Of a DNA stretch of 64,000 nt, positions 18,401 to 63,131 are shown piece after piece. The translations under genes and the position numbers were made by a program. The notes beneath the pieces were generated by a model, which ran no database searches, was not told where the DNA came from, and worked only from the letters and a program-made list of their open reading frames with translations. The DNA lies in NCBI GenBank assembly GCA_021155085.1, contig JAJNQA010000021.1, forward strand, positions 2,875 to 66,874, given 5' to 3'. The stretch's first letter is position 1, and every line of letters begins with the position of its first letter. The stretch comes from Heliomicrobium sp. GTDB lineage: Bacteria > Acidobacteriota > Blastocatellia > RBC074.

Positions 18401-20271
18401 GTGACCGTGAAGTTGACCGTCACGCTTTGTCCGGTCACCGACGGATCGGGATTGTCGGAAGTGATGGTCGTCGTCGTATTGGCCCGGCTGACGACACTGG
18501 TGTAAGCCCTGGAGCCGGTGCAGCCGTTGCTGGTGTCGGTCGCCGTGATGGTGAAGTTGAAGGTGTTGACGGCGTTGGTCGTGCCGGTCAGCGCGCCGCC
18601 GCTCGACAGCGACAACCCGCCGGGCAGCGCGCCTGTGGTCACCGCGAAGGTGTACGGCCCGGTGCCGCCCGAAGCGCTGATCGTGGCGCTGTAGGATTCG
18701 CCGAAGACCGCATTGGAAAGCGACGTAGGATTGACCGTGATCGTCGGGCACGAGACCGTGCCGCTGATCGTGAAGTTGAAAGGATTTTCATCCGCGTCGT
18801 TGTTGTCGAAAGTCAGCGTGCCGCTAGGCGTGCCGCCCGCCGCCGCCGTCATCGTGATTTGAAAAGTCGTCGTGCCGCCGCTGCCGGCCACCGTAGCGCT
18901 GCCGAAATTGGCAGCGATGCTGAAACCAGTTGGCACGCTCAAGTTTGCCAGCGTCAGATTGGCGTTGCCGCTGTTGGTCACGGTAAAGGTCTTGGTGACG
19001 GGCGTGCCGACCGTGGTCGAACCGAAGCTGAAGGAACCGCCATCAGCGATGTTCCCTGCAAGAGTTTCAGACACGGCGATCTCAGGGCTGGCAGCGGTGT
19101 TCAGGGCGCTGGCATCAATATGGCGGATGATGGGCATCGTGCTCCCTCCTACGGCAACCACTTTGGCTGAACTTCCGCTGCCGTTGGCCACAACATCGCT
19201 TATGTTCTGGTTGGTTGTGCCTGAATCGTGGGCAGCCGACCAGGTGGCTCCATCGGTGGAGGAAATAATAGCTCCGTTTGTCCCGACTGCTACGAAAACC
19301 CCGTTGACAAAGGTCATTCTGGTTAAGCCCTGGGAGGCCAAACCTGTTGAAGATTGGGTCCAGGTAACGGCATCGGTTGACCAGACCGCTATGCCGGCAT
19401 TGTTACTGACTGCAACATAACGTCCATTGCCGTAGGCAACGGCGCGAAAGCCCGTTGAAACAGGCGAGGTCTGTTTCGTCCAAGTGTTCCCGTCCGGTGA
19501 TGTGATGATACCGCCGCTGCCGCCTACCGCCACCCATTTGCTGGTACTCGGCTCATAAATAATTGAAAAAAGCGAGCTCGTGAGCACCCCGGTGAGGGTC
19601 TGAATAGACCAGGTGCTAGCATCGGTGGATTTTACCAACTGGCCCCCGGTGTTAACGGTTCCAATGACTTTCGTCCCATCTGTTGCAAAGTTGTTGACAG
19701 TCCCGCTTGTGAGTCCCGAATTGGTTGGGGTCCAGGAGGTGCCGTTGGAAGAGGTGTAAATAGTGGCGTTTGGGAGGTTTACATTAGTGGCGGCCACCCA
19801 TTTGTTGAGGAATGGAATCCAGGTAATGTCGAACACACTTACCACAGTAGCGGCGGACATTTTGCCGTCGTATGTCCAGTTGACACCGTCGGTGGAAGAA
19901 ATAACATTCAGTTCTCCGCCGCTTGCCACAAATTTGGTTCCGTTGTGCGCAACCGTAAAGAATGTATTATTGGCATCTTGTGGTGTTACGCCCGCTGGCA
20001 CGATGGCGGTTGACCAGGTTGGCGCCATCGCCACAGTCAGTGCTCCAGGGGAAGGCAAGGCGGCCAACGGTTGAGTGTATGTACCCAGCGTATGTTTGAT
20101 CCTGGAAACGCCAGTGTCCATTGGACGGGTGACCAACTTTTGAAAAAAGTTGCCGCCTCCAGCCTTGCCCGTCACCAAAACCCGCCCAGCCAGAACTGAA
20201 AGCGTGCCGGCGACGAATAACAAGACCATCGAAAGAAACGTAATACGCGTGAAGCGCGAGGGTGTTCGCAT
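12409..20271 (-). CDS. Giant secreted surface/adhesin-like protein (~2620 aa). Domains in order: BNR-like propeller repeats, 10 tandem Ig-like repeats, 6-7 putative-Ig (He_PIG-like) repeats, and C-terminal FG-GAP/VCBS repeats.
   Basis: ATG at 20271 follows GGGAGA and opens signal/TM ITFLSMVLLFVAGTLSVLA. SxDGxTW-like motifs occur N-terminally. There are ten ~96-aa repeats of the form ANTTTTITSDNPDPSVVGQSVTVNF...AETCTGTVAAGTCTLTL...RTLTATYAGDANFNGSSDTEAHQV. Further repeats follow of the form CPTITLSPASLP...TGFGGCTG. The C-terminus carries DYDGDGKTD...AVWR repeats. Confidence 0.8.
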   Translation of the reverse strand: MRTPSRFTRITFLSMVLLFVAGTLSVLAGRVLVTGKAGGGNFFQKLVTRPMDTGVSRIKHTLGTYTQPLAALPSPGALTVAMAPTWSTAIVPAGVTPQDANNTFFTVAHNGTKFVASGGELNVISSTDGVNWTYDGKMSAATVVSVFDITWIPFLNKWVAATNVNLPNATIYTSSNGTSWTPTNSGLTSGTVNNFATDGTKVIGTVNTGGQLVKSTDASTWSIQTLTGVLTSSLFSIIYEPSTSKWVAVGGSGGIITSPDGNTWTKQTSPVSTGFRAVAYGNGRYVAVSNNAGIAVWSTDAVTWTQSSTGLASQGLTRMTFVNGVFVAVGTNGAIISSTDGATWSAAHDSGTTNQNISDVVANGSGSSAKVVAVGGSTMPIIRHIDASALNTAASPEIAVSETLAGNIADGGSFSFGSTTVGTPVTKTFTVTNSGNANLTLANLSVPTGFSIAANFGSATVAGSGGTTTFQITMTAAAGGTPSGTLTFDNNDADENPFNFTISGTVSCPTITVNPTSLSNAVFGESYSATISASGGTGPYTFAVTTGALPGGLSLSSGGALTGTTNAVNTFNFTITATDTSNGCTGSRAYTSVVSRANTTTTITSDNPDPSVTGQSVTVNFTVTTNSPGSGTPTGNVVVTVSGGAETCTGTVAAGTCTLSLNAAGARTLTATYAQTTNFNGSSDTEAHQVNTANTTTTITSDNPDPSIVGQAVAVNFSVVGAAPGGGTPTGNVVVTISGGAETCTGMVAAGSCTLTLTGIGNRTLTATYAGDANYNGSSDTEAHQVTLANTTTTITSDNPDPSVVGQSVTVNYSVTVNAPGTGTPTGNVVVTVSGGSETCVGTVAAGTCTLTLTSAGARTLTATYAGDANFNGSSDTEAHQVNAANTTTTITSDNPAPSVVGQSVTVNYTVTANSPGAGTPTGNVVVTISGGAETCVGTVAAGTCTLTLTSAGARTLTATYAGDANFNGSSDTEAHQVNAANTTTTITSANPDPSVVGQSVTVNFTTLSIAPGAGTPTGNVVVTISGGAETCTGTVAAGTCTITLTSAGARTLTATYAGNADFNGSSDTEAHQVNAANTTTTISSDNPDPSIVGQAVTVNFSVTAIAPGGGTPTGNVVVTISGGAETCTGTIAAGTCTLTLTNIGNRTLTATYAGDANYNGSSDTEAHQVTLANTTTTITSYTPDPSVTGQAYNVAANVAVTPPGTGTPTGTVTVSDGTGGTCTITLPAASCILTSTTAGAKTLTATYSGDANFNGSTSAGVSHTVNKADTTAAIFSDAPDPSVVGQNVTVTYTVSVTSPGAGTPTGNVLVSDGVNSCTGTVTAGQCVIALFTPGVRTLTATYQGDANYNASPASTGAGHQVNKADTTTTITSDNPDPSVFGQAITVNFTVAAAAPGSGTPTGNVVVTVSGGTETCTGTVAAGSCTLALTAVGNRTLTATYQGDTSYNGSTSAGAPHTANQADTVTTIVSDNPDSSFVGQNLTVVFTVLAVPPGVGTATGNVVVTASGGAETCTGTVAGGSCVITLTTPGARTLTATYAGDTNFNGGTDTEPHTVVAPPSISKAFSPASVPVGQTSTLTFTITNPAANTVALTVAGFTDNFPNSPNLVVATPLTTTNTCGGTLQDGGGGALTAGDTGIMLTGGTVGTGGTCTVSVNVTPNAQGPFVNISGNVTSTNGGTGNTATATLATNTPPTISSDTLTVKAGSNAASFTIATAVDPDQPVNTLGITINGNPTTASGNGVTVSGVTITPSGAVTANIATTCAATSATFNLVVTDNQNATGTGTLTVTVTPNTPPMLGYNPQTVIAGTTPSINPAAGPSDNGTVNPLMLQGVSPNNGGLTVSLNAATGAVTVLSAALIGSYTVTITATDNCGATTTATLVINVVCPTITLSPASLPGVTINTAYSQTISASPAGGNYSFAVTSGLLPAGLTLNSNGAFSGAPTQSGTFNFRITTTGFGGCTGFQDYVLIVSCPTITVDPSSLPGGSVGASYSQTVAGSPAGTYSYAVSSGALPAGLTLNASTGAITGTPTTTGSFNFTITAATSGGGSCSGSRTYTVAITCSTITLSPTSPLPGGQAGVAYSQTISVSPAGSHTFSLISGSLPSGITLNPATGVISGLPSTVGSFTFTIKAQTAGGCNATQSYTLAITCPTVALSPASLPNGTTGTAYTQTISASPSGGGYTYAVTIGSLPAGLNLNSSTGVLSGTPTAGGTFNFRITATGFGGCTGFRDYTVVISGGGCPTITLPASLPNGNVGQLYNAAATASPAGLYSYTITSGSVPPGVTLFGANGLLFGYPTAVGSYTFTVTATQGACSGNRMYTVLIGAGFASSLTVFSDFDGDGKSDLSVWRGSDGNWLVANSGDGKVEATPWGASYAPYNDVTVSGDYDGDGKTDLAVFRRGGEYAGYWFIKQSSDGQVKSHFWGLGTDVPVPGDYDGDGKTDVAVWRGSAGAWYIVRSSDGGIDARTWGFAPLGDVPVPGDYDGDGKTDVAVFRRSTGFWYIRRSSDSLTISTEWGVGTDVPVPGDYDGDNRTDIAVWRALEGNWYIVESSSAVTRTVSLGAAAQGDVPAVADYDGDGKADPALWQPSTGVWTIKRSRDNVEMSKVHGQSGDVPIMSKRN
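15740..18620 (-). repeat. Ten near-identical ~288-bp tandem coding repeats (Ig-like domain units) inside the giant gene. Boundaries are approximate.
   Basis: The protein periodicity and the recurring antisense pseudo-ORFs at ~285-bp spacing (e.g. 16844, 17141, 17993, 18287) show a DNA-level tandem array. Confidence 0.7.
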
Positions 20272-33141: not shown

Positions 33142-33181
33142 ATAAATCAACACAAAATCAGATAAATCAACACAAAATCAG
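33142..33181. repeat. Tandem direct repeat (2 x ~19 bp, ataaatcaacacaaaatcag).
   Basis: Read directly, within the AT-rich region upstream of the 33608 gene. Confidence 0.6.
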
Positions 33182-33607
33182 AATGATAAGGCTTAGACTA
33201 ATGAAATGCTGGTTGACTCCCCCTATAAACGCGGCTACAATCTGAGCGCGTTGGCAGCGAACCTCAATCCTTCTCTCGTGAAGTGACCCTTTCGCAGTCA
33301 CGCCTCTGTCCCTGATAATTAGCTTTCAAAAGTGGTCAAGTCAATAATCCTGAAGCTCCTTTATGCATTTGCCGGGGACAGTGGTAGTGCGTGAACTTAT
33401 TATAAAGAGCATCCCCGTTGAAGTTCTCACTGGGTAACAGGAATAATTAACTTTCGAATTCACTTGAATTTCAATTCTGTTGGCTGGTCGTGCCTTAACC
33501 CCGAATGGCTGGATTCAGGCAGGAAATATAGGGTCATGAACGTTATTATACTTTCACCCTGATCAAGCTTGTTTCTGGGCTAATGCCGCTATTAAGAGGA
33601 GAACAGG

Positions 33608-51297: not shown

Positions 51298-51331
51298 CCC
51301 CGGCGTTGATCTGGCCCCGGCGTTGATCTGG
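51298..51331. repeat. Perfect tandem 17-bp direct repeat (ccccggcgttgatctgg x2) in a convergent intergenic region.
   Basis: Read directly. Confidence 0.7.
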
Positions 51332-51365: not shown

Positions 51366-54002
51366 TCACCAACCGACCTGCAGGCTAAACTTGAAAGTCC
51401 GCCCTTCATTCAGCGTGTTCGTGATCGCACCGAAGTTTGGATTGGCCAGTTCAAACCCCGGCTCAGCGAATTGCGGCGTGTTGAACAGATTGTTGGATTC
51501 GGCGCGGAATGACAGCCGCAGATCCTGTTTGAACGCCCATGACCGCGAGAGCTGTGCGTTGACATTGCGAATCGGCCCTTTGCGAAACACGTTGCGGCCA
51601 AGCGAACCGCGTTCAGCCAGCCCCACAATCTCATCTGGCCGCATGAAACGAAACGCACTTCGGAGCAGCAACTGACGAGAAGTGTCCGGGTCGGCAATCG
51701 TCCGCCCAAGAATCGAAGGATCAAGCAGGATCGGGCGGTCGCCGCCGTTGCCATCCACATTGCCGAACCCCGGCCCGTCAGAGCCCGTGGAAAGGTTGAA
51801 CGGGATTCCGGTTTTGACCAGCGCCACTGCGGAAACACTCCAGCCGCTGGCGACAGCGGAAACCCAGCGATTGAATTTCGGCGCTCGAATCGCATAACTG
51901 GTTCTGAGCAGAAAAGCGTGCGTCTGGTCGAAATCGCTGAGCCCTTTCATATCGCGCTGAGTTTCGTACTCAGTTTGACTGCGCGACTTGCGCGAGTCGT
52001 TTTCGTTGGCGGTGTTGGTGTAACTCGCGCCCAGGTCAATCGCCTTGCTAAACCAGTATGAAGCATCCACCGTCAGCCCTCGCCAGTTCGGCAGCACGAA
52101 CGAAACACGCGCCGCATCGAAATAGCCCTGAGAACCGTTCACCGTCAGCCGGTAATCGGCAATGTCCTGATTCGCGCGGCGTTCATTGACCGTCGCGGTC
52201 GTGATCTTTGACACATCGGCCACCGGATGCGCACGGTTCAGATACCACAGCACCAGCAGTTTGTGAGACCGGCTGCCGACATAGCCGAACTGCAACCGCG
52301 CGGCCTTGTTCCAGTCCGGCTCCCAACTCAGATTGTATTGGTGCGAATACGGCGTCGCCAGTTCAGGATCGAGCGCGTATACCGTCGGTTTGCCGATCCT
52401 GCCTTCAAAGGGATTGAACAGGCTTTGCGGCGCAACCACAACGACTTTGTTGTTCAGCGGCGGACTGAATCGAATCTGCTGAAAACTGACGAAGAAGATT
52501 TCGCCAAAATGCGTTCCAGACCCGCCGCGAATCACGCCCAGGCGACTAGGCAGGCGATACGCGAAACCGAATGCCGGCCCCAGATTGTTCCAGTCGCTGT
52601 CATAGGGAATCCGGTTGAGGCCATTCACCTCCACAGGCTTTGTCACAGGCTGCCAGCGCAACCCATATTGCAGATTCAATTGCGGCGAAAGCTGCCATTT
52701 GTCGCCCGCATACAATTGCGCTTCCCACATCCGAAAACCGCGATGAATGTCACCCACCGAACCGATGTATTGCGATGGTTTCCCCAACCGGAAATTCGTT
52801 ACCGCATCAGTTCCGAAATCATTGCTGAACGAAAAAAAACCACGATGCACATCCGTTTCGCTGCCGTTGATTTGACGGCGGACAAGCCCCCCGCCGGCGG
52901 CCCAGGTGTGTTTGCCATCCGCGCGTTGCCATTGCGCTCCGGCACGGATCTGATTTTGTGCGCGATCAATCGGAATGGTTCCGTCCGGGCCAAGACTGGT
53001 CAGTCCGGAGGGCGAAACAAAAGGCCCGACGGCATTCTCTTCCGGTTGCAGCAGTGAACTCAGCCGGTCGTAACTGAGCACGATATTCGTCAAGGTTTTC
53101 GTGCTCCAGATATGCGTCCAGGCTATCCGCGCCAGATGCGATTTGGTGTCCGTATCGGGGTTCTGCCCGGCGACAAGCTGAAAAGCGTCCACGTTTTGAT
53201 TCGTGAACTGATACTGCAACGCCAGTGTGTCGCGGCGGCCCAGGGTGTGATCCAGACGCAAACCAACCTGGTGATTGTTGATCGCTTGCGGAGCGTTGGT
53301 ATTCAACGCGCGCGCATTAATGTCCGTGCGGTTGGGCAGTTCTTTTGGATACGCATTCAGAAATTTCACCACCAGCGCGCGCGTCGCCGGATCGTCCGTG
53401 AGCGGCGTGCGTTCGTCCGGTCTGGGAACCAGCACATTGCCATTGACCGACCCGCGAATCTTTTGCTGAGCGGCTTCAACGAAAAGCTTCGTGCGCGCGC
53501 CGAGTCCAAACCCGGCATTGAAGCCATAATCGTTTTCGCGCGCCGGTTTGACCGCGCCGACCTGAAAGAACGACCGCGCGGTGAAAACGCTGTTGAGATG
53601 GCTTTCGTAAAGCTGGCCATGAAACCCTGCGCGCAGCGGCGCTGGCAGGGAAACTGCCGGACGCGGCGCGTTGCCGAACTCCGAGCCGAAATAATTGCTG
53701 GCTGGATTGAACTCACGAATGATTGTGGCCGTCGTTCCCAACCGGACATTCAGTTCCTTGAGCGCGCCATTGTCCACCAGATTGAATTGGACGTTTTCAT
53801 TGCGCCGGCTTTCGCCGGACGCCGAATCCGTCTTGCCCAGCATGTTCAACTCGACGCGTTTGCTGGAATCCGCTGGTTTTGATTCTTCGGCACTCTGCTT
53901 TTCCGGCTGGGAAGGTTTGCCGGTCTGTTGCGCCAAACAAGTGGCCAGCCCCACGATGAGGCAGACAAACGTTTGGCAAAAGGACGTATTCAATCGCGCC
54001 AT
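51366..54002 (-). CDS. Outer-membrane TonB-dependent receptor-like beta-barrel protein (tentative).
   Basis: ATG at 54002 follows GAGAGGGAAA and opens a signal peptide ending ...GLATCLAQQ. The 878-aa product has alternating beta-strand-like composition and a C-terminal aromatic end (FSLQVGW). Confidence 0.5.
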
Positions 54003-54182
54003 TTTCCCTCTCAATTGATTTGTTGCAGGCGAGTCGCTTGTGAATCAAGCGGGCGCACTATAACAAACTTGCCGACGCTATGTGAAAGACGCCTTGCTTG
54101 ACAGTCAGCAGAGCGTTGATTACCTTCGCGACGCCACGCAAAGTTGTCAAACATTCACGCGATCAACAATCGGCAAAACCGC

Positions 54183-55775
54183 ATGCAACCGATCCAATCC
54201 TTCGTTGACATAAAGTCTGAACACTATCGGGCGAATCATGCCGCGAATTTTCAGAACATCCTGCGACTGCAAAAAGCATTAATGGAATCCACGCTCGGCG
54301 GCGGCGAACAGTACGTCAAACGCCACATCGCGCGCGGCAAACTCCTTCCACGAGAACGCATAGAAATGCTGCTGGACGAAGGTTCGTACTTTCTGGAAAT
54401 CGCGCCGCTTGCCGGCGTGGCGATGGAAAACGAATTCGTCGGTGCGGGCGTTGTCGGCGGCGTGGGGCTGGTTTCCGGCCGGCAATGCTTCATCATCGCC
54501 AACGAAGCCACCGTCAAAGGCGGTGCGGTCAGTGAAATCGGCGCGCGCAAAAACGCCCGGCTGGCTGAAGTCGTGGCGACCAATCATCTGCCTTCGATTT
54601 CACTGGTCGAATCCGCCGGTGCTGATTTGCCTGTGCAACATAAAATTTTCGTCCCAGGCGGCGCGGGCTTTAAGGAAATCACGCGGCGGTCGAAGAACCG
54701 CATCCCCAGCATTTCGGTCGTGTTCGGCAATTCAACGGCGGGCGGCGCGTATCTGCCGGGAATGTCCGATTACGTCGTGATGGTCAAGAAACAAGCGCAG
54801 GTCTTTCTCGGCGGACCGCCGCTGGTCAAAATGGCGACAGGCGAAATCGTGGACGAAGAGAGTTTGGGCGGCGCGGAAATGCACTCGAAGATTTCCGGTC
54901 TTTCCGATTATCTGGCCGAAAACGAACTCGACGGATTGCGCATTGCCCGCGAAATTGTCTCGCATTTGCAGCCAAGTATTGAGCCGCAACGCGCAGCCAC
55001 GGAAGCACCGCTCTATCCCGCCGACGAATTGCTGGGCATCACTTCTGCCGATGTGCGCGTCCCCTTCGATGTCAAAGAAGTCATCGCCCGCATCGTGGAT
55101 GGCTCCCGCTTCGAAGAGTTCAAGTCACGCTACGGCGCGACGCTCATCACCGGCTGGGCACGCATTCACGGCTTTCTGGTGGGCATTCTGGGCAACAACG
55201 GCGTGCTGCTTTCCGAATCCGCTGGCAAGGGCGCGCAATTCATCCAGCTTTGCAATCAGCAAAACATCCCGCTCATCTTCCTGCAAAACATCACGGGCTT
55301 TATGGTCGGGCGAAGTTACGAAGAGCAAGGCATCATCCGCAATGGCGCGAAGCTGATCAATGCCGTGTCCAATTCCACCGTCCCGGCCATCACGGTAATG
55401 ATCGGCAGCAGTTACGGCGCGGGCAATTACGCGATGTGCGGACGGTCTTATGATCCGCGATTCGTTTTCACCTGGCCGAATCATCGCATTGCCGTGATGG
55501 GCGGCCAGCAACTGGCCGGCGTGATGGACATCATCAAACGCGATGCCGCCGCGCGATCAGGCCAGCCGATTGACGAAGCCAAACAGGCGATGGCCAAACA
55601 AATGCTGGAAGCGCAGATTGAAAAAGAATCCGATCCGTACTTCGCGACGGCGCGGCTGTGGGATGACGGCATCATTGACCCCCGCGACACCAGAACCGTG
55701 CTGGCGATTGCGCTGATGGCTGCGCATCAAAAACCGTTCGCGGGAACGATGGAATGGGGAGTATTTCGGCATTGA
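54183..55775 (+). CDS. Methylcrotonyl-CoA carboxylase carboxyltransferase (beta) subunit.
   Basis: Colinear with the MCCase beta/LiuB N-terminus (MQPIQSFVD...[23 protein letters not shown]) and with the acyl-CoA carboxyltransferase core. Confidence 0.8.
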
Positions 55776-55849
55776 TGATCCGCCAGAAATGATCGGGCAA
55801 TCTTGTCAGAGATTTGCGGCCAGGGAGCAGGGACCGGAAAAGAGGCTTT

Positions 55850-56227
55850 ATGGAAATAAAAAGCTATCGGGATTTGAAAGTTTGGCAAAAAGCGATGGAG
55901 TTGGTGTTGATGTGCTACAAGCTGACGGAGAAACTACCGAAATCGGAAACGTACGGATTGAGCAGCAAGATTCAAAACACAGCTTCCAGCATTCCGGCAT
56001 ATATTGCTGATGGTCACAGCCGTGAAACAACGGGCGAGTTTCTCAACCGGCTGTCATCGGTTTTGGGTTTTGTGGCAGCGCTTGAAACACATTTGCTGGC
56101 AACTGAAATGTTGTCGTTCCTGCCCATGAAGGACATTCAGCCGACGCTCGATAAATGCGCCGAAGTTGGCAAAATGACCAATGGCTTGATGAAAAGCCTA
56201 AGAAGCGGCGGGCGCCCTAACCCCTGA
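55850..56227 (+). CDS. Four-helix-bundle protein (TIGR02436 / 23S rRNA intervening-sequence protein family), copy 1.
   Basis: Contains [19 protein letters not shown]...IPAYIADGHSR. RBS AAAGAGG. Paralogous to 60958..61323. Confidence 0.75.
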   Translation: MEIKSYRDLKVWQKAMELVLMCYKLTEKLPKSETYGLSSKIQNTASSIPAYIADGHSRETTGEFLNRLSSVLGFVAALETHLLATEMLSFLPMKDIQPTLDKCAEVGKMTNGLMKSLRSGGRPNP

Positions 56228-56265
56228 TCTCAAGCCGCTATTCCCTGACACTTCAAACAAACGGC

Positions 56266-58242
56266 ATGAAACCTTTTCGCAAAATCCTGGTCGCCAATCG
56301 CGGTGAAATCGCGTCACGCGTGCTGCGCACTTGCCGAACAATGGGCATCGCCACGGTCGCGGTTTATTCCGACGCTGATGTCAACTTGCCGCACGTTCGC
56401 TTCGCCGACGAAGCCGTTCATCTGGGCGCTGCGCCCGCTAAAGATTCCTATCTGAATATCGCCAGAATGATTGAAGCCGCCAAACAAACCGGCGCGGAAG
56501 CGATTCATCCCGGCTACGGTTTTCTATCGGAGAATCCCGAATTTGCCGAAGCCTGCGCGGCGGCGGGAATCGTGTTCATCGGTCCGCAGCCGGAAGCGAT
56601 TCGCAAGATGGGATTGAAAAGCCCGGCGCGGAAATTGGCGGCGGCGGCAGGCGCGCCGGTGGTTCCGGGTTACGACGGTGAAAATCAAGATGACGAAACA
56701 CTGCGCGCTGAAATTCTGAAAATCGGCTTCCCTGTTTTGATCAAGGCTTCGGCGGGTGGCGGCGGCAAGGGAATGCGCGTGGTGCGCACGGAAGCCGAAA
56801 TCGCCGACGCCATCGAAAGCGCCCGCCGCGAAGCCGAAAAGGCTTTCGGCAATGGCGCGTTGCTGCTGGAAAAATTCATTGAAGGCGCGCGCCACATCGA
56901 AATCCAGATTCTCGGCGACCAGCACGGCAACCTGGTTCATCTGTTCGAGCGCGATTGCTCGCTGCAACGGCGGCATCAGAAAGTGATTGAAGAAAGCCCT
57001 TCGCCCGCCATCCTTCCGGAAATGCGCGCACGAATGGGCGAAGCGGCGGTCAACATCGGACAGGCAATTGGTTACACCAGCGCGGGCACCATTGAATTCA
57101 TTCTGGCTCCGGGCGGCGAGTTCTATTTCATCGAAGCCAACACGCGATTGCAGGTCGAACATCCCGTAACCGAAATGGTCACCGGATGGGATCTGGTCAA
57201 GCTGCAAATTCAGATTGCCGAAGGCCGTCCCCTGCCTTTAACGCAGAAAGAGTTGAAAGCCACCGGCCACGCCATCGAAGCGCGGCTCTATGCGGAAGAT
57301 CCAAACAACAGTTTCCTGCCCGTCACCGGACGGATTCACCACTGGCGGCTGCCCGCGGGAATTGATGGCGTGCGCGTGGATTCGGGCGTCGAGGCCGGAA
57401 TGGAAGTTGGCATCTATTACGACCCGATGCTGGCCAAACTGATTGCGCACGCTGAAGACCGCGAAACAGCCATTCGCCAATTGTGCTATGCGCTCCGACA
57501 GACTTCGATCCAGGGGGTTCAAACCAACCGCGGCTTTTTGATTCGGCTGCTGCAACACGATACTTTTCAACGGGGCAAGGCGGACATCAGCTTCATCCCG
57601 GAACATTTGGATGAACTCGTGGATGGGGCAAATCCGCGGCTTGAACAGGCTTCAGTCATTGCGGCAGCCTTGTATCTACAACAAAACCAGCAAATGGCGG
57701 ATTCCCTGCTGGCGCGGATTCCGCCGAATTATCGCAATAATCCGTATCGCGCGCCTTCGATGAAGCTGTTGATCGGACAGCAGGAGACAGAGGTTTCTTG
57801 CCGCCATCTTGCGGAGGGCAAGTTTGAGATTGCGGCGCTGGGAGCGATTGCCGTGGCAGAGGTTTTATCCTGTGAACGCGACCGCCTGCGGCTGGCGATT
57901 GACGGCATTCAGCGGGAATTTTGCGTCACGGAAGTGAATGACCGGCTTTTTATTGATTCCTCGCTTGGGGCAAGTGTCATCACGCGACTGCCCCGGCATC
58001 CGATCCCTTCGACGGCGGGTCAGGAAGGCGCGGCGAGTTCGCCCATACCCGGCGTGGTGCTGAAAATTCTGGTCAGCGAAGGCCAGCCCGTCGCCGCCGG
58101 TGAAGCGCTGCTGATTTTGGAAGCGATGAAAATGGAGCAGACCATTCGCGCCACTTCCGACGGCATAGTCGAAGCAATCAAAGTCACACCGGGGCAGGTG
58201 GTTTCCCCCGGCGATGTGCTGGTTCAGGTGCGGACGGTGTAA
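56266..58242 (+). CDS. Methylcrotonyl-CoA carboxylase biotin-carboxylase/BCCP (alpha) subunit.
   Basis: Biotin carboxylase N-terminus KILVANRGEIA. ATP-grasp domain. C-terminal biotinyl domain with EAMKMEQ. Confidence 0.85.
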   Translation: MKPFRKILVANRGEIASRVLRTCRTMGIATVAVYSDADVNLPHVRFADEAVHLGAAPAKDSYLNIARMIEAAKQTGAEAIHPGYGFLSENPEFAEACAAAGIVFIGPQPEAIRKMGLKSPARKLAAAAGAPVVPGYDGENQDDETLRAEILKIGFPVLIKASAGGGGKGMRVVRTEAEIADAIESARREAEKAFGNGALLLEKFIEGARHIEIQILGDQHGNLVHLFERDCSLQRRHQKVIEESPSPAILPEMRARMGEAAVNIGQAIGYTSAGTIEFILAPGGEFYFIEANTRLQVEHPVTEMVTGWDLVKLQIQIAEGRPLPLTQKELKATGHAIEARLYAEDPNNSFLPVTGRIHHWRLPAGIDGVRVDSGVEAGMEVGIYYDPMLAKLIAHAEDRETAIRQLCYALRQTSIQGVQTNRGFLIRLLQHDTFQRGKADISFIPEHLDELVDGANPRLEQASVIAAALYLQQNQQMADSLLARIPPNYRNNPYRAPSMKLLIGQQETEVSCRHLAEGKFEIAALGAIAVAEVLSCERDRLRLAIDGIQREFCVTEVNDRLFIDSSLGASVITRLPRHPIPSTAGQEGAASSPIPGVVLKILVSEGQPVAAGEALLILEAMKMEQTIRATSDGIVEAIKVTPGQVVSPGDVLVQVRTV

Positions 58243-58395
58243 CCGGGAACCGGCACGACTCAAATCGAAGGCACCAGCCGTTTCGTGGCTACACCGAAAA
58301 TGATATTGTTTGCCACGCCAGCGAATGACTGGCTTCCCTTCTCAACAAGTCTTCAAACAATATTTCATTGAGCACCAACACGGAGGCAAAAAACC

Positions 58396-59571
58396 ATGTC
58401 ACAGGCAACCAGGCAGGCTTTGGACATTCCGACTTTTCCTTATTTCACCGAAGAACATGGCATGTTGCGCGAAACTGTCAAACAGTTCAGCGAACGCGAA
58501 ATCGCGCCGTACGCCGAAGAATGGGATGAAGCAGGCATCTTCCCGCGCGAGTTGTTCAAGAAAGCCGGCGACCTGGGCCTGTTCGGCATTCGCACCGATC
58601 CGCGCTGGGGCGGCAACGGCCTGGACTGGTGGGCGACGGCGGCTTATCTGGAAGGTTTGTCCTACGCCAACAACGGCGGCGTGGTGATGGCGCTGATGGT
58701 GCAATCGGACATGACCTTGCCAGTGCTGGAAGAATTGGGAACCGATGAACAGCGCGAACTATTTCTGAAACCTGCCGTCGCCGGAGACTTCATCGCCGCG
58801 CTGGGCGTCAGCGAACCCGGCGGCGGTTCGGATGTGGCGAACCTCAAAACCCGCGCGGTAGTTGACGGCGAGGATTTCGTCATCTCCGGCCAGAAGCTTT
58901 GGATCACCAACGGCACGCGCTCGGACTTCATTCTGCTGGCTGTTCGCACCGGCGAAGAAGGTTACAAAGGCATTTCCTTCGTCGTTTTCCCGACCTCCAC
59001 GCCCGGCTTCAGCATCGGCAAAAAGCTGAAAAAAGTCGGCAACCTGTCATCAGACACGGCGGAACTGTTTTTCGACAATTGCCGCATTCCGCGCCGTTAC
59101 CTGCTGGGCGAATTGAACAAGGGTTTTTATTACGTGATGCAGAACTTTCAGGGCGAACGGTTGGTGGCGGCGCTGGGCGCGGTTTACAAGATGGAACGCG
59201 CCATCGAATACGCCGTCGCTTATGGCAAGGAACGCAAAGCCTTCGGCCAGCCCATCGGTTCGTTTCAGGTCTGGCGGCACAAATTCGCCGAGCATCTGGC
59301 CAGCGTCGAAGCCGCAAAATGGCTTTGTTATCGCGCGCTGGATTTGATCAACCGGGGCGAACCCGCCGTCAAGGAAATCACGATGGCCAAGCTGTTCTGC
59401 TGCGATCTGGATCAAAAAGTGATGTACGACTGCATGCAGATTATGGGCGGATTCGCCTACACCACGGAATATCCGATTGGCCGCGCCTGGCGTGACGCGA
59501 GATTGAACACCATCGGCGGCGGCGCTTCGGAAATCATGAAAGAGATCATCGCCAAACAGTGCAAACTATAA
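58396..59571 (+). CDS. Acyl-CoA dehydrogenase (isovaleryl-CoA dehydrogenase-like).
   Basis: ACAD N, middle and C-terminal domains are present, including the catalytic-base region near [22 protein letters not shown]. Confidence 0.8.
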
Positions 59572-59750
59572 GTGCAGCAGCCAACAGGTGCCGGGACCAA
59601 TCGGGAACGAGAACCGCTACGCCATCGCTGTCTTGAAGCATTTGGCGCGTTGTGCAATGGGTAGTTTTCCAGTTGTGATTGCTCCTCCGACCCACGCGAA
59701 GGCCCAATGAAATTTGCCAGCGGCGCTGGCCATCACAGGAGTTTTGATAA

Positions 59751-60293
59751 ATGACTTTCTGCCTTACCTTCATCCTTCTGATCATTTCCGCCTTTTTTCA
59801 ATCCCCAAAGACTGCACAACCCAACGAACTTCCGCCAGAATGGTTTGGTGATTGGTCGGGAACACTGATCATTCCATCTGCCAAAGTCAGACAGGAAGTT
59901 CCAATGGAACTGCATATCCACCCCATCAAAGGCGAACAAGTGTATCAATGGCAGATCGTCTACGGTTCGGGCGACAAAAAGAACGTGCGCAATTACAAAC
60001 TACTGCCTCAATCAGACAAACCCGGCACTTTTGTTCTGGATGAAGTAAACGGCATTTTGCTGGACTGCCGCCTGATGGGAAACGTGATGTTCAGCCAGTT
60101 CAAAGTCGGCGACGTGTTGCTGACAACACGCGAAGAATTGCGCGACGGAAAATTATTCTCGGAAATCATCACGTCCAGGTTCAGTTCGCCGCGTATTACC
60201 GGCGACAAGGGCAAAGAAACCGAAGTTCTCTCGTATCCGCTGCAATCCATTCAATACGCCACGTTAACCAAACAGAACCCCGCCGCCAAATGA
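59751..60293 (+). CDS. Hypothetical secreted protein.
   Basis: Signal peptide [22 protein letters not shown]. No family recognised. Confidence 0.4.
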
Positions 60294-60304
60294 AGGAGTG
60301 CGTT

Positions 60305-60883
60305 ATGCATCCACAATTCGAAGAACCAATGAGTTGGTTTCCCATTCCCGCCGAAGATCAATTGCCTGAAAGCCTGCAGGGCTTGTTCAAAAAGGCCCGA
60401 GAGAAAGTCGGCTTCGTGCCGAACGTCTTTCGCGTCTACAGCTTTCGGCCAGAACGCTTCAGCGCGTGGTTTGCGCATTACAAACAACTTCACGAGCCAA
60501 CCGAAAACCTGAGCGCCGCCGAGCGCGAAATGATCGCCGTCGCCGTTTCGATGGCCAACGGCTGTTTGTATTGTCTGGTCGCGCACGGCGCAGCGCTGCG
60601 GCAAACGCTGGGCGATCCGATCCAGGCCGACCGCATTACGCTTGATTACAAACGCGCGGGCCTGGACGCCAAAATGGAAGCCGTGCTGGATTTCGCCGTG
60701 CTGCTGACCGAATCGCCGGTCAATGCATCGCCCGTGGACATCGCGCATCTGCAAAGCTTCGGCCTGACGCTGGAAGAAGTCTGGGACGTGATCGAAATCG
60801 CCGCGATGTACAACTTCACGAATCGCATGGCTTCGGCGACGGGGATGATCCCGAACCGCGAATACCACGCTTTGGCAAGATAG
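60305..60883 (+). CDS. Carboxymuconolactone decarboxylase/AhpD-like (peroxidase-related) family protein.
   Basis: AAGGAG sits 6 nt upstream of the ATG. The CxxCxxxH-type motif [15 protein letters not shown] is present. Confidence 0.7.
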
Positions 60884-60885
60884 GT

Positions 60886-60915
60886 GGTAGGTTATAGGTG
60901 ACAGGTTGCAGGTGG
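60886..60915. repeat. Left arm of an imperfect inverted repeat flanking four-helix-bundle gene copy 2.
   Basis: taggttataggtgacaggttgcagg matches the reverse complement of 61352..61381 (taggttgtaggtgacaggttgtagg) at 23 of 25 positions. Confidence 0.65.
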
Positions 60916-60957
60916 TGGGATTGAAAAACTCAGCAACAATTCAGCTAGGAGGAAACT

Positions 60958-61323
60958 ATGAAAATTCAGAGTTACCGTGATCTGTTGGTTTGGCAGAAAG
61001 CGATGGAACTGGTCGTTGAATGCTATAAGTTCGTCAGCAGCCTGCCCAAAAATGAAACTTATGGTTTGATCAGCCAAGTGCAACGCGCAGCCGTATCAAT
61101 CCCTGCCAACATCGCCGAAGGACAAGGACGTGATCATTTAGGTGATTACCTTCGTCATCTTTCCATTGCCAATGGATCGTTAAAAGAATTGGAGACGCAC
61201 TTGCTCCTGATTGGGCGGCTGGGCTACCGCCCGGAACAAGACGCCGAACCGATGCTTGTGCAGTGCGCCGAAGTCGGCAAAATGCTGTCCGGCCTTTCAA
61301 AAAGTCTGAGAGGCAACCGGTAA
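60958..61323 (+). CDS. Four-helix-bundle protein (TIGR02436 family), copy 2.
   Basis: Contains [19 protein letters not shown]...[20 protein letters not shown]. Flanked by the 25-bp inverted repeat. Confidence 0.75.
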
Positions 61324-61351
61324 ATAAAGCATTCGTTATCTGCAGCCACTT

Positions 61352-61381
61352 CCTACAACCTGTCACCTACAACCTACAACC
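61352..61381. repeat. Right arm of the inverted repeat flanking four-helix-bundle gene copy 2.
   Basis: cctacaacctgtcacctacaacctacaacc, the reverse complement of the left arm. It also contains cctacaacc direct repeats. Confidence 0.65.
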
Positions 61382-61391
61382 TGGAGAACGC

Positions 61392-63131
61392 ATGGCAATC
61401 AAAAACGAGTTGGCGCACTGGGAAGCCGAGGACTTCGGCATTCAACTGATTGATCTGACCGTCGGCGATTTGCTGGATCAACGCGCCAGCGAAATCCCGG
61501 ACAAGGAGGCATTGGTCTACAACTATCCTGAATTCGGGTTGGAACTGCGGCTAACTTACGCCGAGTACTGCAATGCGGTCAATCAACTGGCGAAGGGCTT
61601 GATGGCGCTCGGCATTGAAAAAGGCGATCACGTCGCGGTTTGGGCGACAAACCTGCCGGAATGGATTTTCCTGGAAATGGCGCTGGCCAAAATCGGCGGC
61701 GTGCTGGTGACGGTCAACACCAACTACCGCGCGGCGGAAATCGAATACGTGCTGCGGCAGGGTGACATCAAGGCGCTGTTTTTGATCGAAGAGTTTCGCG
61801 GCAATTCATATCTGGAATCCGTTTACGCCGCCGCGCCGGAGTTGAAAGACATGAGCGATTCCATCAGCCACGAATTACAAAGCGAGAAACTCCCTCGGCT
61901 GAAGCGGGTCGTCTTGATTGGCTCCAAAGCGCTGGATGCTCCGAAGCCGGGCGTGATGCTTTATTCGCAGGTCCTGGCATTGGCTGACAGCGTCTCCAGC
62001 GAAGAGTTGCAAGCCAGACAGGCCAGCGTTAGTCCGCAGGATGTGGCGCAAATTCAATTCACCAGCGGCACGACGGGGTTTCCAAAAGGCGTTATGCTGA
62101 CGCATCACAGCCTGATCAACCAATCGCACGTGGCAGCGGCGCGCGGCGATTTGCGCGCCACCGAACGTTATGTGACGGCAATGCCTTTCTTCCATATCGC
62201 GGGCAGCCTGGGCGGAATCATCTATGCCACTTTTCTGGGTTGCACGCTGGTTCCGCTGATTGCCTTCGATCCGGTCAAGCATCTGGAACTGTTCGACAAG
62301 GAAAAAGGCTCGTTCACCTTCGCCGTCCCAACGATGCTGGTGGCCATGCTCAATCATCCGCGCTTTGGCGAATTTGACCTTTCGGCAGTCCGTTCAATCT
62401 TCACCGGCGCAACGCCCGTTCCGGTCGTGGTGATGGAACAAATCAAGGAACGAATTGGCGCGGATTGTTCGATTGTTTTCGGAATGACGGAAACCTGCGG
62501 CGCGGTGACGCAATCGTTTTACACCGACAGCTTCGAACTGAAAGCCGCCACCGTCGGACTGCCCATTCCGCACACTGCGATCAAGATTGTGAATCCGGCG
62601 ACCGGCGAAACCTGCAACTGCGGGGAATCGGGCGAACTGTGGACGAAGGGTTTCTCGAACATGGCGGGCTACTACAAAATGCCTGACAAGACGGCGGAAA
62701 CACTGGATGAAGACGGCTGGCTGCATTCGGGTGACCTAGCCGTGATGCGCCCGGATGGCTACATCAACATCGTCGGGCGCGTTAAGGACATGATCATTCG
62801 CGGCGGCGAAAATATTTATCCGGCGGAAATCGAAGCTTTCCTGATGCGCCATCCGAAAATCGCCGAAGCGCAAATCATCGGCATCCCTGATTCGTTTATG
62901 GGCGAAGAGGTCTGCGCAATGATCCGGTTGAAACCCGGCCTGGAGGCAACCGAAGACGAACTCCGCGAACACTGCCAGGCAAACATCAGCCGCCACAAAG
63001 TGCCGAAGCATTTCCGATTTGTCGAATCGTTTCCGTTGACGGCCAGCGGCAAAGTCCAGAAGTTCGTTCTGCGCGAACAGTTGATCAAGGAAATGGGCCT
63101 GGAGAACGTGGCGGGGATGAAGACGGCTTGA
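61392..63131 (+). CDS. AMP-dependent acyl-CoA synthetase/ligase.
   Basis: AMP-binding motif [11 protein letters not shown] and TGDLA...DGY...GRVKD are present. GGAGAA lies upstream of the ATG at 61392. Confidence 0.8.

Follow-up and report, generated by a model that had tools for sequence, protein, structure and literature searches.

A four-helix-bundle gene in a hairpin of inverted heptamer arrays between operon genes of a Blastocatellia bacterium

The cassette between the CMD and ligase genes

Two genes for four-helix-bundle (4HB) proteins lie in gaps of a carboxylase/acyl-CoA gene cluster in a 64,000-nucleotide stretch of Blastocatellia DNA (Heliomicrobium sp., GenBank assembly GCA_021155085.1, contig JAJNQA010000021.1, positions 2,875 to 66,874), referred to below as the window. 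The second of them, copy 2, is located between a gene for a CMD/AhpD-like "peroxidase-related enzyme" (the CMD gene) and an acyl-CoA ligase gene, and is bracketed by two complementary arrays of tandem heptamers (Table 1). It is a gene-in-hairpin cassette: promoterless by search, equipped with a strong Shine-Dalgarno sequence (SD) of its own and with the 4HB gene in the loop of a stem of ~35 bp. A previous reading of the sequence alone had pointed to a 25-bp inverted repeat around the open reading frame (ORF) and likened the element to an intervening sequence (IVS) of 23S rRNA transplanted into an mRNA operon.

The 25-mer at 60888-60912 matches the reverse complement of 61352-61376 at 23/25 positions, and no such match is expected by chance (100 shuffles). 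The inverted repeat is thus present and encloses the ORF, but it is longer than the 25 bp described and its tandem-heptamer make-up had been overlooked. A repeat finder extended each arm to 37 nt, the arms being 86% complementary and 427 nt apart, and each consists of ~five tandem heptamers, (AGGTnnn)5 in the 5' arm and (nnnACCT)5 in the 3' arm. Period 7 was also reported by TRF at 60879-60906 and 61352-61382, with 4.0 and 4.4 copies respectively. Neither a further occurrence of (AGGTNNN)x3 or longer nor a second copy of the arm was found in the 64-kb window. The first heptad unit starts with the AG of the CMD stop codon TAG at 60881-60883 (T/AGGT) and the last unit of the 3' arm directly abuts the ligase SD (ACCT/GGAG). 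As the arrays run from the stop codon of one gene to the SD of the next, the element exactly fills the intercistronic spacer. The ligase SD, GGAG at 61383-61386, is followed by an ATG at 61392; this start was set by comparison with the gene call of a relative (contig L001) and direct sequence reading.

Folding of the RNA from 60870 to 61395 paired the arms in both the minimum free energy (MFE) and the centroid structure, in agreement with the long-range stem around the ORF that had been proposed, at -179.1 kcal/mol (z = -4.07, 0/100 shuffles as stable). When the stop-to-start segment was folded, 34 arm-to-arm pairs were formed (z = -5.8). Inside the stem, the cassette SD AGGAGG sits 5 nt before the ATG of the 4HB gene, and between the SD and the 5' arm there is a box, CTCAGCA-N5-TCAGCT (60929-60946), that recurs in L109, L114, L127, L021 and L027, is degenerate in L120 and is possibly an internal regulatory or binding site. 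A sigma-70-like promoter was not found in 60600-61600, nor an intrinsic terminator in the region of the cassette.

The protein scored above the curated cutoffs of PF05635 (126.9 bits, cutoff 33.8), TIGR02436 (123.8, cutoff 24) and NF008911 (151.9, cutoff 137), which upholds its earlier assignment to TIGR02436. It is 56% identical to the product of copy 1, likewise a member of PF05635/TIGR02436, and the two genes are paralogues, as had been noted. In a sequence search residues 8-118 matched PDB entry 2gsc (XCC0516) with E = 1.7e-22, followed by 2rld at 2e-6; in the literature, the family member whose structure was solved is described as a toroidal homopentamer. Among copy 2 orthologues the median dN/dS was 0.054 and many pairs had saturated synonymous sites (dS > 1). 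The protein is under strong purifying selection and, because this low ratio is accompanied by synonymous saturation, it is functional and old at the site.

Weak matches to the Avd family were obtained (PF22296, 26.1 bits at a cutoff of 40; NF033474, 31.3 and 36.1 bits at a cutoff of 80), and PF05635 has been reported to resemble Avd (PMC10053308). Avd (bAvd) is a homologous four-helix bundle that, unlike the proteins here, works within diversity-generating retroelements (DGRs) beside a reverse transcriptase. Membership in a DGR was ruled out since the Avd scores fall below the cutoffs and the genes flanking both copies are all metabolic, with no reverse transcriptase among them. A role as a defence system was unsupported, PADLOC giving no hits, as was carriage by phages, with no relatives in IMG/VR (single-protein query) or INPHARED.

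Table 1. Features of the two four-helix-bundle loci in the window
Feature	Position	Strand	Basis
4HB gene copy 2, 121 aa	60958..61323	+	PF05635 / TIGR02436 / NF008911
5' arm, G/T-rich heptamers AGGTGGT AGGTTAT AGGTGAC AGGTTGC AGGTGGT GG	60882..60918	+	inverted repeat, period 7
3' arm, C/A-rich heptamers ...CCTACAA CCTGTCA CCTACAA CCTACAA CCT	61346..61382	+	inverted repeat, period 7
Box CTCAGCA-N5-TCAGCT and cassette SD AGGAGG (60947-60952)	60929..60952	+	sequence reading
CMD/AhpD-like "peroxidase-related enzyme" gene, upstream of copy 2	60290..60883	+	TIGR01926 184.9 bits, PF02627
Acyl-CoA ligase gene including SD, downstream of copy 2	61383..63131	+	PF00501, PF13193, NF009233 602 bits
4HB gene copy 1, 125 aa, between carboxyltransferase and biotin carboxylase genes	55850..56227	+	PF05635 87.7 bits, TIGR02436 79.7 bits
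Putative 5' array vestige of copy 1, AGGGAGC AGGGACC	55822..55835	+	sequence reading against L141 and L142; weak alone
Putative 3' array vestige of copy 1, TTCCCTGAC	56241..56249	+	sequence reading; weak alone

Conservation at the junction and across the protein family

Homologues 81-94% identical to copy 2 occupy the same position between CMD and ligase genes in diverged genomes in which the wider gene context differs. A survey anchored on the ligase gene, with one genome per species and 26 loci, gave four further occupied junctions (L109, L114, L120 and L127) and eight empty ones, where the CMD gene directly precedes the ligase gene with neither gene nor arrays in between; at the other loci no CMD gene lay upstream or the contig end was too near the ligase gene. 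Arrays were present at 8/8 occupied junctions whose sequence was read and at 0/8 empty junctions, and also at 0/9 of the displayed ligase loci without an upstream CMD gene. The sequence-only reading had named relatives of identical spacing that lack gene and repeats as a finding that would speak against a cassette. Relatives lacking both do exist, namely these eight, but their spacers measure 47-107 nt, not the ~508 nt found here. A lack of further genomic copies with the flanking repeat had been named as well; none occurs in the 64-kb window, and in the relative L120 an ORF-less hairpin of the same unit family lies 3.3 kb from the cassette.

The edges of the element are conserved along with it. 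The CMD stop codon is TAG in 8/8 occupied orthologous sites shown with sequence, as opposed to four TAA, two TGA and one TAG at the empty sites (L124 excluded), and the ACCT/GGAG boundary is kept in all occupied orthologues. Array lengths vary by whole 7-nt units, being ~5+5 here, ~4+16 in L114, ~4+15 in L127 and ~9+4 in L109, and the contig of L132 opens with ~18 CTGACAC units that reach up to the ligase gene. The AGGT core is kept despite synonymous saturation, a divergence that would randomise neutral sequence, and the long-range stem is part of the MFE fold in 8/8 orthologues. Ten contigs from different samples (L001-L010) that encode an identical 4HB protein have identical arrays, and therefore no short-term instability was seen; a covariation test on these contigs was dropped as uninformative, all flanks being identical.

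On a neighbour-joining (NJ) tree of the ligase, occupied and empty sites are interleaved, a pattern consistent with a single old gain and several later losses, although repeated site-specific gains at the junction may instead have taken place. The copy 2 cassette is an ancient acquisition in Blastocatellia that has been vertically inherited and is absent from some lineages. The words "transplanted" and "mobile" used for it previously do not hold, in view of the strong purifying selection and of its presence at the same junction in genomes whose synonymous sites are saturated.

The empty spacers of L112, L115 and L116 hold unrelated long hairpins. In L110, L113 and L126 an inverted repeat resembling a miniature inverted-repeat transposable element (MITE), TAGACAGGATnnACAAGATT...AATCTTGTTCATCCTGTCTA, lies upstream of the ligase gene; this motif does not occur in the 64-kb window. 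Various types of hairpin element seem to be drawn to the CMD-ligase junction.

The layout extends well beyond this junction. A metagenome scan gave 80 loci with homologues 53-90% identical, at most of which the 4HB gene is preceded by a G/T-rich heptad array and followed by a complementary C/A-rich one. A bracketing inverted repeat with a score of at least 14 was found at 49/67 diverged homologue loci and at 0/199 decoys, that is other positions in the same DNA (Fisher p ~1e-38). The units differ between loci (AGGTGTC, AGGTTTT, CAGTGGT, CAGTTGC, AGTCGGG, GGCAGTA, GAGTGGC, AGATCGC and AGGTCTT among them) and the unit type follows the NJ tree of the protein. Bracketing by heptad arrays is the norm for the 4HB family, and the unit is inherited together with the protein. 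The conclusions on architecture and family are, in our judgement, very probably correct. In Cyanobacterium aponinum, a member of another phylum with AT-rich DNA, AGGTnnn/nnnACCT units surround homologues of 64% identity. Cassettes on Nostocales plasmids, with units TCAGGAG, ACAGGTG/ACAGGGA, AGGGTGT and CTTCTGC, are found in conjugation-type clusters, beside an integrase gene and in the gap between cas6 and cas4. Out of ten independent contexts with reliable gene calls, the 4HB gene was co-oriented with the upstream gene in nine.

Some of these loci have features of their own. In C. aponinum (L108, CP138348; 2720-3000 and 5900-5990) two near-identical 4HB copies lie 3 kb apart, both with a conserved upstream box, CTGACGTTACGCACTTATTnATGTGTTAAGTTAAGG. 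Between box and gene, copy a has an extra inverted heptad pair around ~140 nt of non-coding DNA, which looks like a hairpin inserted within the cassette. On plasmid pANA02 of Anabaena sp. 90 (L139, NC_019429.1 43092-45833) the 4HB gene lies between cas6 and cas4 of a type I-D CRISPR-Cas system and is preceded by ~30 ACAGGTG/ACAGGGA heptamers; a clear complementary array was not seen downstream. Two general explanations of the arrays were discarded. Mimicry of SD and anti-SD by AGGUG/CACCU does not extend to clades that use AGTCGGG, GGCAGTA or AGATCGC, and a telomere-like origin is at odds with the polarity of the arrays (G-rich 5' and C-rich 3', on either strand), which is opposite to that of 3'-end addition.

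Heptad arrays also occur without the gene. In 226 kb of Blastocatellia DNA that had not been chosen via the 4HB gene, 7 period-7 arrays lie beside a 4HB gene and 19 lie elsewhere. Most of the 19 are tight inverted pairs, in which a G/A-rich array is followed by a spacer of ~20-50 nt and the complementary array, and their predicted folding energies range from -34 to -97 kcal/mol. In L122 such ORF-less hairpins fill three consecutive intercistronic gaps, each running from a stop codon to the next SD or ATG. Arrays away from the 4HB gene use the unit of the local cassette (Hamming distance <=1) in L056, L066, L074 and L120, in the last of which the hairpin lies 3.3 kb from the cassette and belongs to the same unit family; distant arrays in L085 and L087 likewise share the unit of the local cassette. 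The individual hairpins in L122 (1096-1192, 6129-6235 and 6624-6720), L123 (6140-6228 and 7598-7715), L128 (6129-6219 and 6607-6703) and L120 (6203-6338), with units AGTACAA, AGTAGAA and AGGTTTC, lie in gaps of the same atu/liu-type cluster.

The rRNA elements to which the sequence-only reading had compared copy 2 belong to this family. Among the 80 metagenome homologues, L080 and L085 are located within 23S rRNA genes (Rfam LSU_rRNA_bacteria, 2489 and 2072 bits). Their proteins are 53-54% identical to copy 2, their ORF is found at the helix-45 position and their arms are heptad arrays as well, CGAGTGG CGAGAAG CGAGTGG CGAGTGG and CTCGCAA CTCGCCC CTCGCTT CTCGCCA. About 650 nt upstream of the cassette in L085 there is an ORF-less hairpin composed of (CTAGTGG)n, a 29-nt loop and (CCACTAG)n which, judged by its spacing alone, would be at the helix-25 site. 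One 23S gene (L085:510-680 and 1292-1766; also L080) accordingly holds two IVSs with nearly the same heptad unit, the first ORF-less with ~ten CTAGTGG units and the second the 4HB cassette with its CGAGTGG/CGAGAAG arms.

The IVS of Coxiella is 444 nt long; its ends form a stem of 28 bp, the loop contains the S23p ORF, and its 5' part contains two or three tandem GACAGAT heptamers, their number strain-dependent. RNase III cleaves it inside the stem, on the 5' side at the start of the first repeat, and S23p is reportedly not expressed, its ORF decaying (PMC4990558). In the ORF-bearing 23S IVSs of Leptospira, Coxiella burnetii and Brucella the loop encodes the same protein family as copy 2 and complementary termini form a long stem. 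Copy 2 shares the terminal complementary stem with an ORF in the loop and the tandem heptamers in the arm; its stem measures 37 bp against the 28 bp of Coxiella and its length is ~501 nt against 444 nt. The Coxiella IVS and the Blastocatellia cassette are further alike in the varying number of 5' heptamers, in their sporadic presence among relatives and in being part of the host transcript, which for the cassette is deduced from its setting. The host RNA differs, being an rRNA helix tip for IVSs (23S/16S; helix 9, 25 or 45) and an intercistronic mRNA gap here: the flanks of copy 2 are protein-coding and no rRNA or other Rfam family matched within 55600-61600. The genes differ too, since copy 2 combines strong purifying selection with a strong SD whereas the Coxiella ORF is reportedly unexpressed and decaying.

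The kinship with ORF-bearing 23S IVSs is therefore confirmed by the same heptad-arm layout in L080 and L085 and by the heptamers of Coxiella, and the comparison has a shared architecture behind it and not analogy alone. Only 2/80 sampled homologues are in rRNA; the rRNA IVS is a special case of a mostly non-rRNA element family and not its source. An IVS-type element as such is already known; new are its mRNA-operon setting and the tandem-heptamer arms as the unifying feature.

Proposed mechanism, alternatives and related repeat systems

The placement of the arrays fits a role at the level of the transcript, as they abut the stop codon and the SD exactly, also in the ORF-less hairpins of L122. 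We propose that the stem pairs in the transcript and is processed by RNase III, and assign to this RNA-level mechanism a probability of about 0.5. The cassette, for which no promoter or terminator was found and which is co-oriented with its neighbours, would be transcribed as part of the operon. Pairing of the arms would then loop out ~430 nt and bring the CMD stop codon up against the ribosome-binding site of the ligase gene, so that the insertion would do little harm to operon expression, just as the ribosome is unharmed when an IVS stem lengthens an rRNA helix. The length of the stem is sufficient for RNase III, which is known to excise the IVSs of Coxiella, Leptospira and Salmonella, and a cut could release or modulate the 4HB mRNA. 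As unit type and protein clade co-vary, the 4HB protein, from a family with a toroidal homopentamer and related to the nucleic-acid-binding Avd, probably acts on its own heptad arrays.

Several observations weigh against the RNA-level mechanism. Wobble pairs are not favoured among the stem mismatches (G.U 35, A.C 35, transversions 75), contrary to what selection on a sense-strand RNA would predict. Mirrored unit order was weak in a low-powered permutation test (26/38 loci above the mean, combined p = 0.23), and the arms may simply be arrays of one unit in opposite orientation. They are also very unequal in L114 and L127 (4 units against ~15), the centroid folds of L120 and L127 lose most or all of the long-range stem, and some cyanobacterial cassettes have a single clear arm only. 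The IVS precedent does not explain the strong conservation of the 4HB protein, given the reported state of S23p in Coxiella. The orientation of neighbours in the metagenome loci was scored with a crude ORF caller that miscalled known genes such as the CMD gene of L027, and the ten contexts with proper gene calls were used in its place.

On account of the missing G.U bias, the weak mirroring and the unequal arms, a role of the arrays at the level of DNA or protein is kept as a serious rival. The arrays would in that case be terminal inverted repeats or recognition sites for mobilisation, or paired protein-binding sites, with the RNA stem as a by-product; ORF-less hairpins would be MITE-like non-autonomous copies, and the binder would be the 4HB pentamer or IHF/HU, the latter as proposed for Geobacter. 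Such a role would account for the equal frequency of G.U and A.C mismatches, for arms made mainly of one unit family without strict mirroring, for the co-variation of unit and protein clade and for the unit shared by ORF-less arrays and local cassettes in L056, L066, L074, L085, L087 and L120. The interleaving on the ligase tree and the near-identical paralogous copies in C. aponinum also favour it, as does the reading by Aklujkar et al. of paired arrays in G. metallireducens as IHF/HU sites (PMC2700814). Yet the Blastocatellia cassettes have no recombinase gene beside them and show no target-site duplication, searches of viral contigs and phage genomes yielded no relatives, and copy 2 has kept its place at a single junction through divergence that saturated synonymous sites. 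The strict stop-to-SD placement in co-oriented operons and the use of dispensable rRNA helix tips are constraints of a transcript and not of DNA, and RNase III demonstrably cuts the homologous stem of Coxiella. We regard action on DNA as possible but on balance unlikely.

Both arrays could instead tune translation, the 3' array that of the ligase and the 5' array that of the 4HB gene, in the manner suggested for the TAACTGA repeats of Beggiatoaceae and cyanobacteria; candidates for binding them are S1, Csp or CsrA-like proteins. The 3' arm does end at the downstream SD/ATG, the position taken by the TAACTGA repeats (PMC4679880), some cassettes have a single array and 3' arrays expand independently of 5' arrays. 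However, at most loci the two arrays are complementary far beyond chance and dominate the predicted folds, rRNA offers no downstream start codon to regulate and ORF-less elements are tight inverted pairs, all of which makes tuning alone improbable. The least probable explanation by far is a repeat made by chance or slippage and unrelated to the gene. Tandem heptamers readily expand and contract, and copy number differs among orthologues and among Coxiella strains, but no chance matches are expected, and the contrasts of 49/67 loci with 0/199 decoys and of 8/8 occupied with 0/8 empty junctions refute it, as do the conservation of the AGGT core across phyla at 64% protein identity and the persistence of the arrays at dS > 1.

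Intergenic tandem arrays of 7-nt units are known from cyanobacteria as short tandemly repeated repetitive (STRR) heptamers. The arms of copy 2 are likewise tandem, intergenic and of 7-nt period, and AGGTnnn matches no published unit; the heptamers of the Nostocales plasmid cassettes also differ from the classical STRR units. Direct repeats of TAACTGA that lie immediately before start codons were reported from Beggiatoaceae, Cyanobacteria and Bacteroidetes by MacGregor (2015), in a text with no mention of "four helix", "23S" or "intervening" (PMC4679880), and a Nostoc preprint speculated on a protein that binds to heptamer repeats. The TAACTGA and Nostoc PCC 7120 heptamers are also intergenic 7-nt tandem arrays, reported as single direct arrays with no inverted partner noted. 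The CAGTTGx/xCAACTG units of L060, L083 and L086 resemble TAACTGA but are not identical to it. Paired arrays of hepta- and octanucleotides on opposite strands were described in G. metallireducens by Aklujkar et al. in 2009, who catalogued them as global regulator binding sites of classes 1-3, read them as IHF/HU-type sites on DNA and drew no tie to 4HB or IVS (PMC2700814). The class 3 pairs that were read have arrays ~85-100 nt apart with no ORF between the arms, and their unit MTYCTGA is the reverse complement of TCAGRAK at Nostoc/Trichormus 4HB cassettes. Geobacter pairs lie between operon genes (moaA and mosC, cbiG and cobQ, proB and proA), as do the ORF-less hairpins of L120, L122, L123 and L128. 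A link of heptamer arrays to PF05635 genes or IVSs was not found in searchable full texts, in which the term PF05635 occurred in the context of DGRs only; subscription journals and family descriptions may differ.

Inverted-repeat hairpins that lie in operon intergenic regions and are co-transcribed include the repetitive extragenic palindromic (REP) sequences and bacterial interspersed mosaic elements (BIME), the REPIN-RAYT system (REP doublets and their associated transposase) and the Correia/NEMIS elements of Neisseria. Correia/NEMIS elements are RNase III substrates, and REP/MITE-type elements have autonomous and non-autonomous forms. REP/MITE-type arms differ from those described here in consisting of unique sequence, not heptamers, and such elements move by a RAYT or insertion sequence (IS) transposase, none of which is associated with the cassettes; REPINs are discussed in PMC3116915. 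The cassette cargo is a 4HB protein without known catalytic activity, unlike the transposase on which REP/MITE-type elements depend. In a comparison with MITE and IS elements, copy 2 shows inverted repeats; a target-site duplication was not visible when occupied and empty sites were compared, the arm has no second copy in the 64-kb window, ORF-less copies with its unit occur in relatives, and no transposase, integrase or other recombinase gene lies beside the Blastocatellia cassettes.

Knowledge of intergenic heptamer repeats dates from about 1990 and that of ORF-bearing rRNA IVSs from the early 1990s, but neither is known to have an accepted function. The results show that inverted heptamer arrays are the usual companions of the IVS protein gene and that most copies of this gene are in operon gaps, not in rRNA, which links repeat families so far described separately. 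A tentative wider reading, which we rate as rather unlikely to be right as a whole, is that PF05635 proteins and inverted heptamer arrays form a widespread unrecognised class of hairpin elements, with ORF-bearing (autonomous-like) and ORF-less forms, that occupy structure-tolerant transcribed sites (rRNA helix tips and intercistronic gaps) and whose own unit is recognised by the 4HB pentamer. If true, rRNA IVSs, the Geobacter paired sites and part of the STRR/TAACTGA repeats of cyanobacteria, Beggiatoaceae and Bacteroidetes would be one system. The findings at this locus and its relatives lead to the hypotheses that 4HB proteins bind cognate arrays, that RNase III processes mRNA stems and that, despite the insertion, translational coupling is maintained by the hairpin. 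For annotation, small 4HB genes that interrupt operons, such as liu/atu clusters, the gap between cas6 and cas4 in Anabaena sp. 90 and conjugation clusters of Nostoc plasmids, are to be read as cassettes and not as parts of the pathway.

Copy 1, the host cluster and other repeats in the window

No inverted repeat was found to bracket the ORF of copy 1. Only two pairs turned up nearby: a 12-nt palindrome downstream (56310-56327), within the following gene, and a 10-nt pair with its second arm in the ORF; neither encloses copy 1, in line with the weak complementarity noted from the sequence alone. Relatives of copy 1 likewise follow a carboxyltransferase gene of the methylcrotonyl-CoA carboxylase (MCC) type, at the same junction, and in one of them, L141, which encodes a 79%-identical orthologue, complementary arrays are present upstream (ATCAGAG/GCCAGAG) and downstream (TCCCTGA/TCTCTGA). 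The putative 3' vestige TTCCCTGAC aligns with ...AAATCCCTGACATTTC in L142 and with the TCCCTGA units of L141. Judged by this comparison, copy 1 is an older cassette of the same kind with eroded arms, and the erosion explains the weak complementarity around it.

Both 4HB genes lie, as had been described, in gaps of a co-directional carboxylase/acyl-CoA cluster, whose members were identified by profile matches. It includes genes for an MCC-type carboxyltransferase (54144-55775, in the same direction as the rest of the cluster), a biotin carboxylase with an MCC-alpha BT domain (56266-58242) and an acyl-CoA dehydrogenase (58396-59571). The cluster is a fatty-acid/terpene degradation operon of the liu/atu type. 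The CMD gene is preceded by a 180-aa ORF (59751-60293) that shares 4 nt (ATGA) with its start, matched neither Pfam nor NCBIfam and is also kept upstream of the CMD gene in the relatives L001, L021 and L112.

Elsewhere in the window, an 882-aa minus-strand ORF (51366-54014) overlaps two plus-strand ORFs, 52227-53057 (276 aa) and 53112-53882 (256 aa), neither of which matched a family. Long tandem repeats at 16697-18484 (period 288 nt, 6.2 copies, 80% match) and 4436-4766 (period 147 nt, 2.3 copies) are probably repeated domains of large proteins. Perfect two-copy tandem duplications of 20 nt and 17 nt occur at 33142-33182 and 51298-51331.

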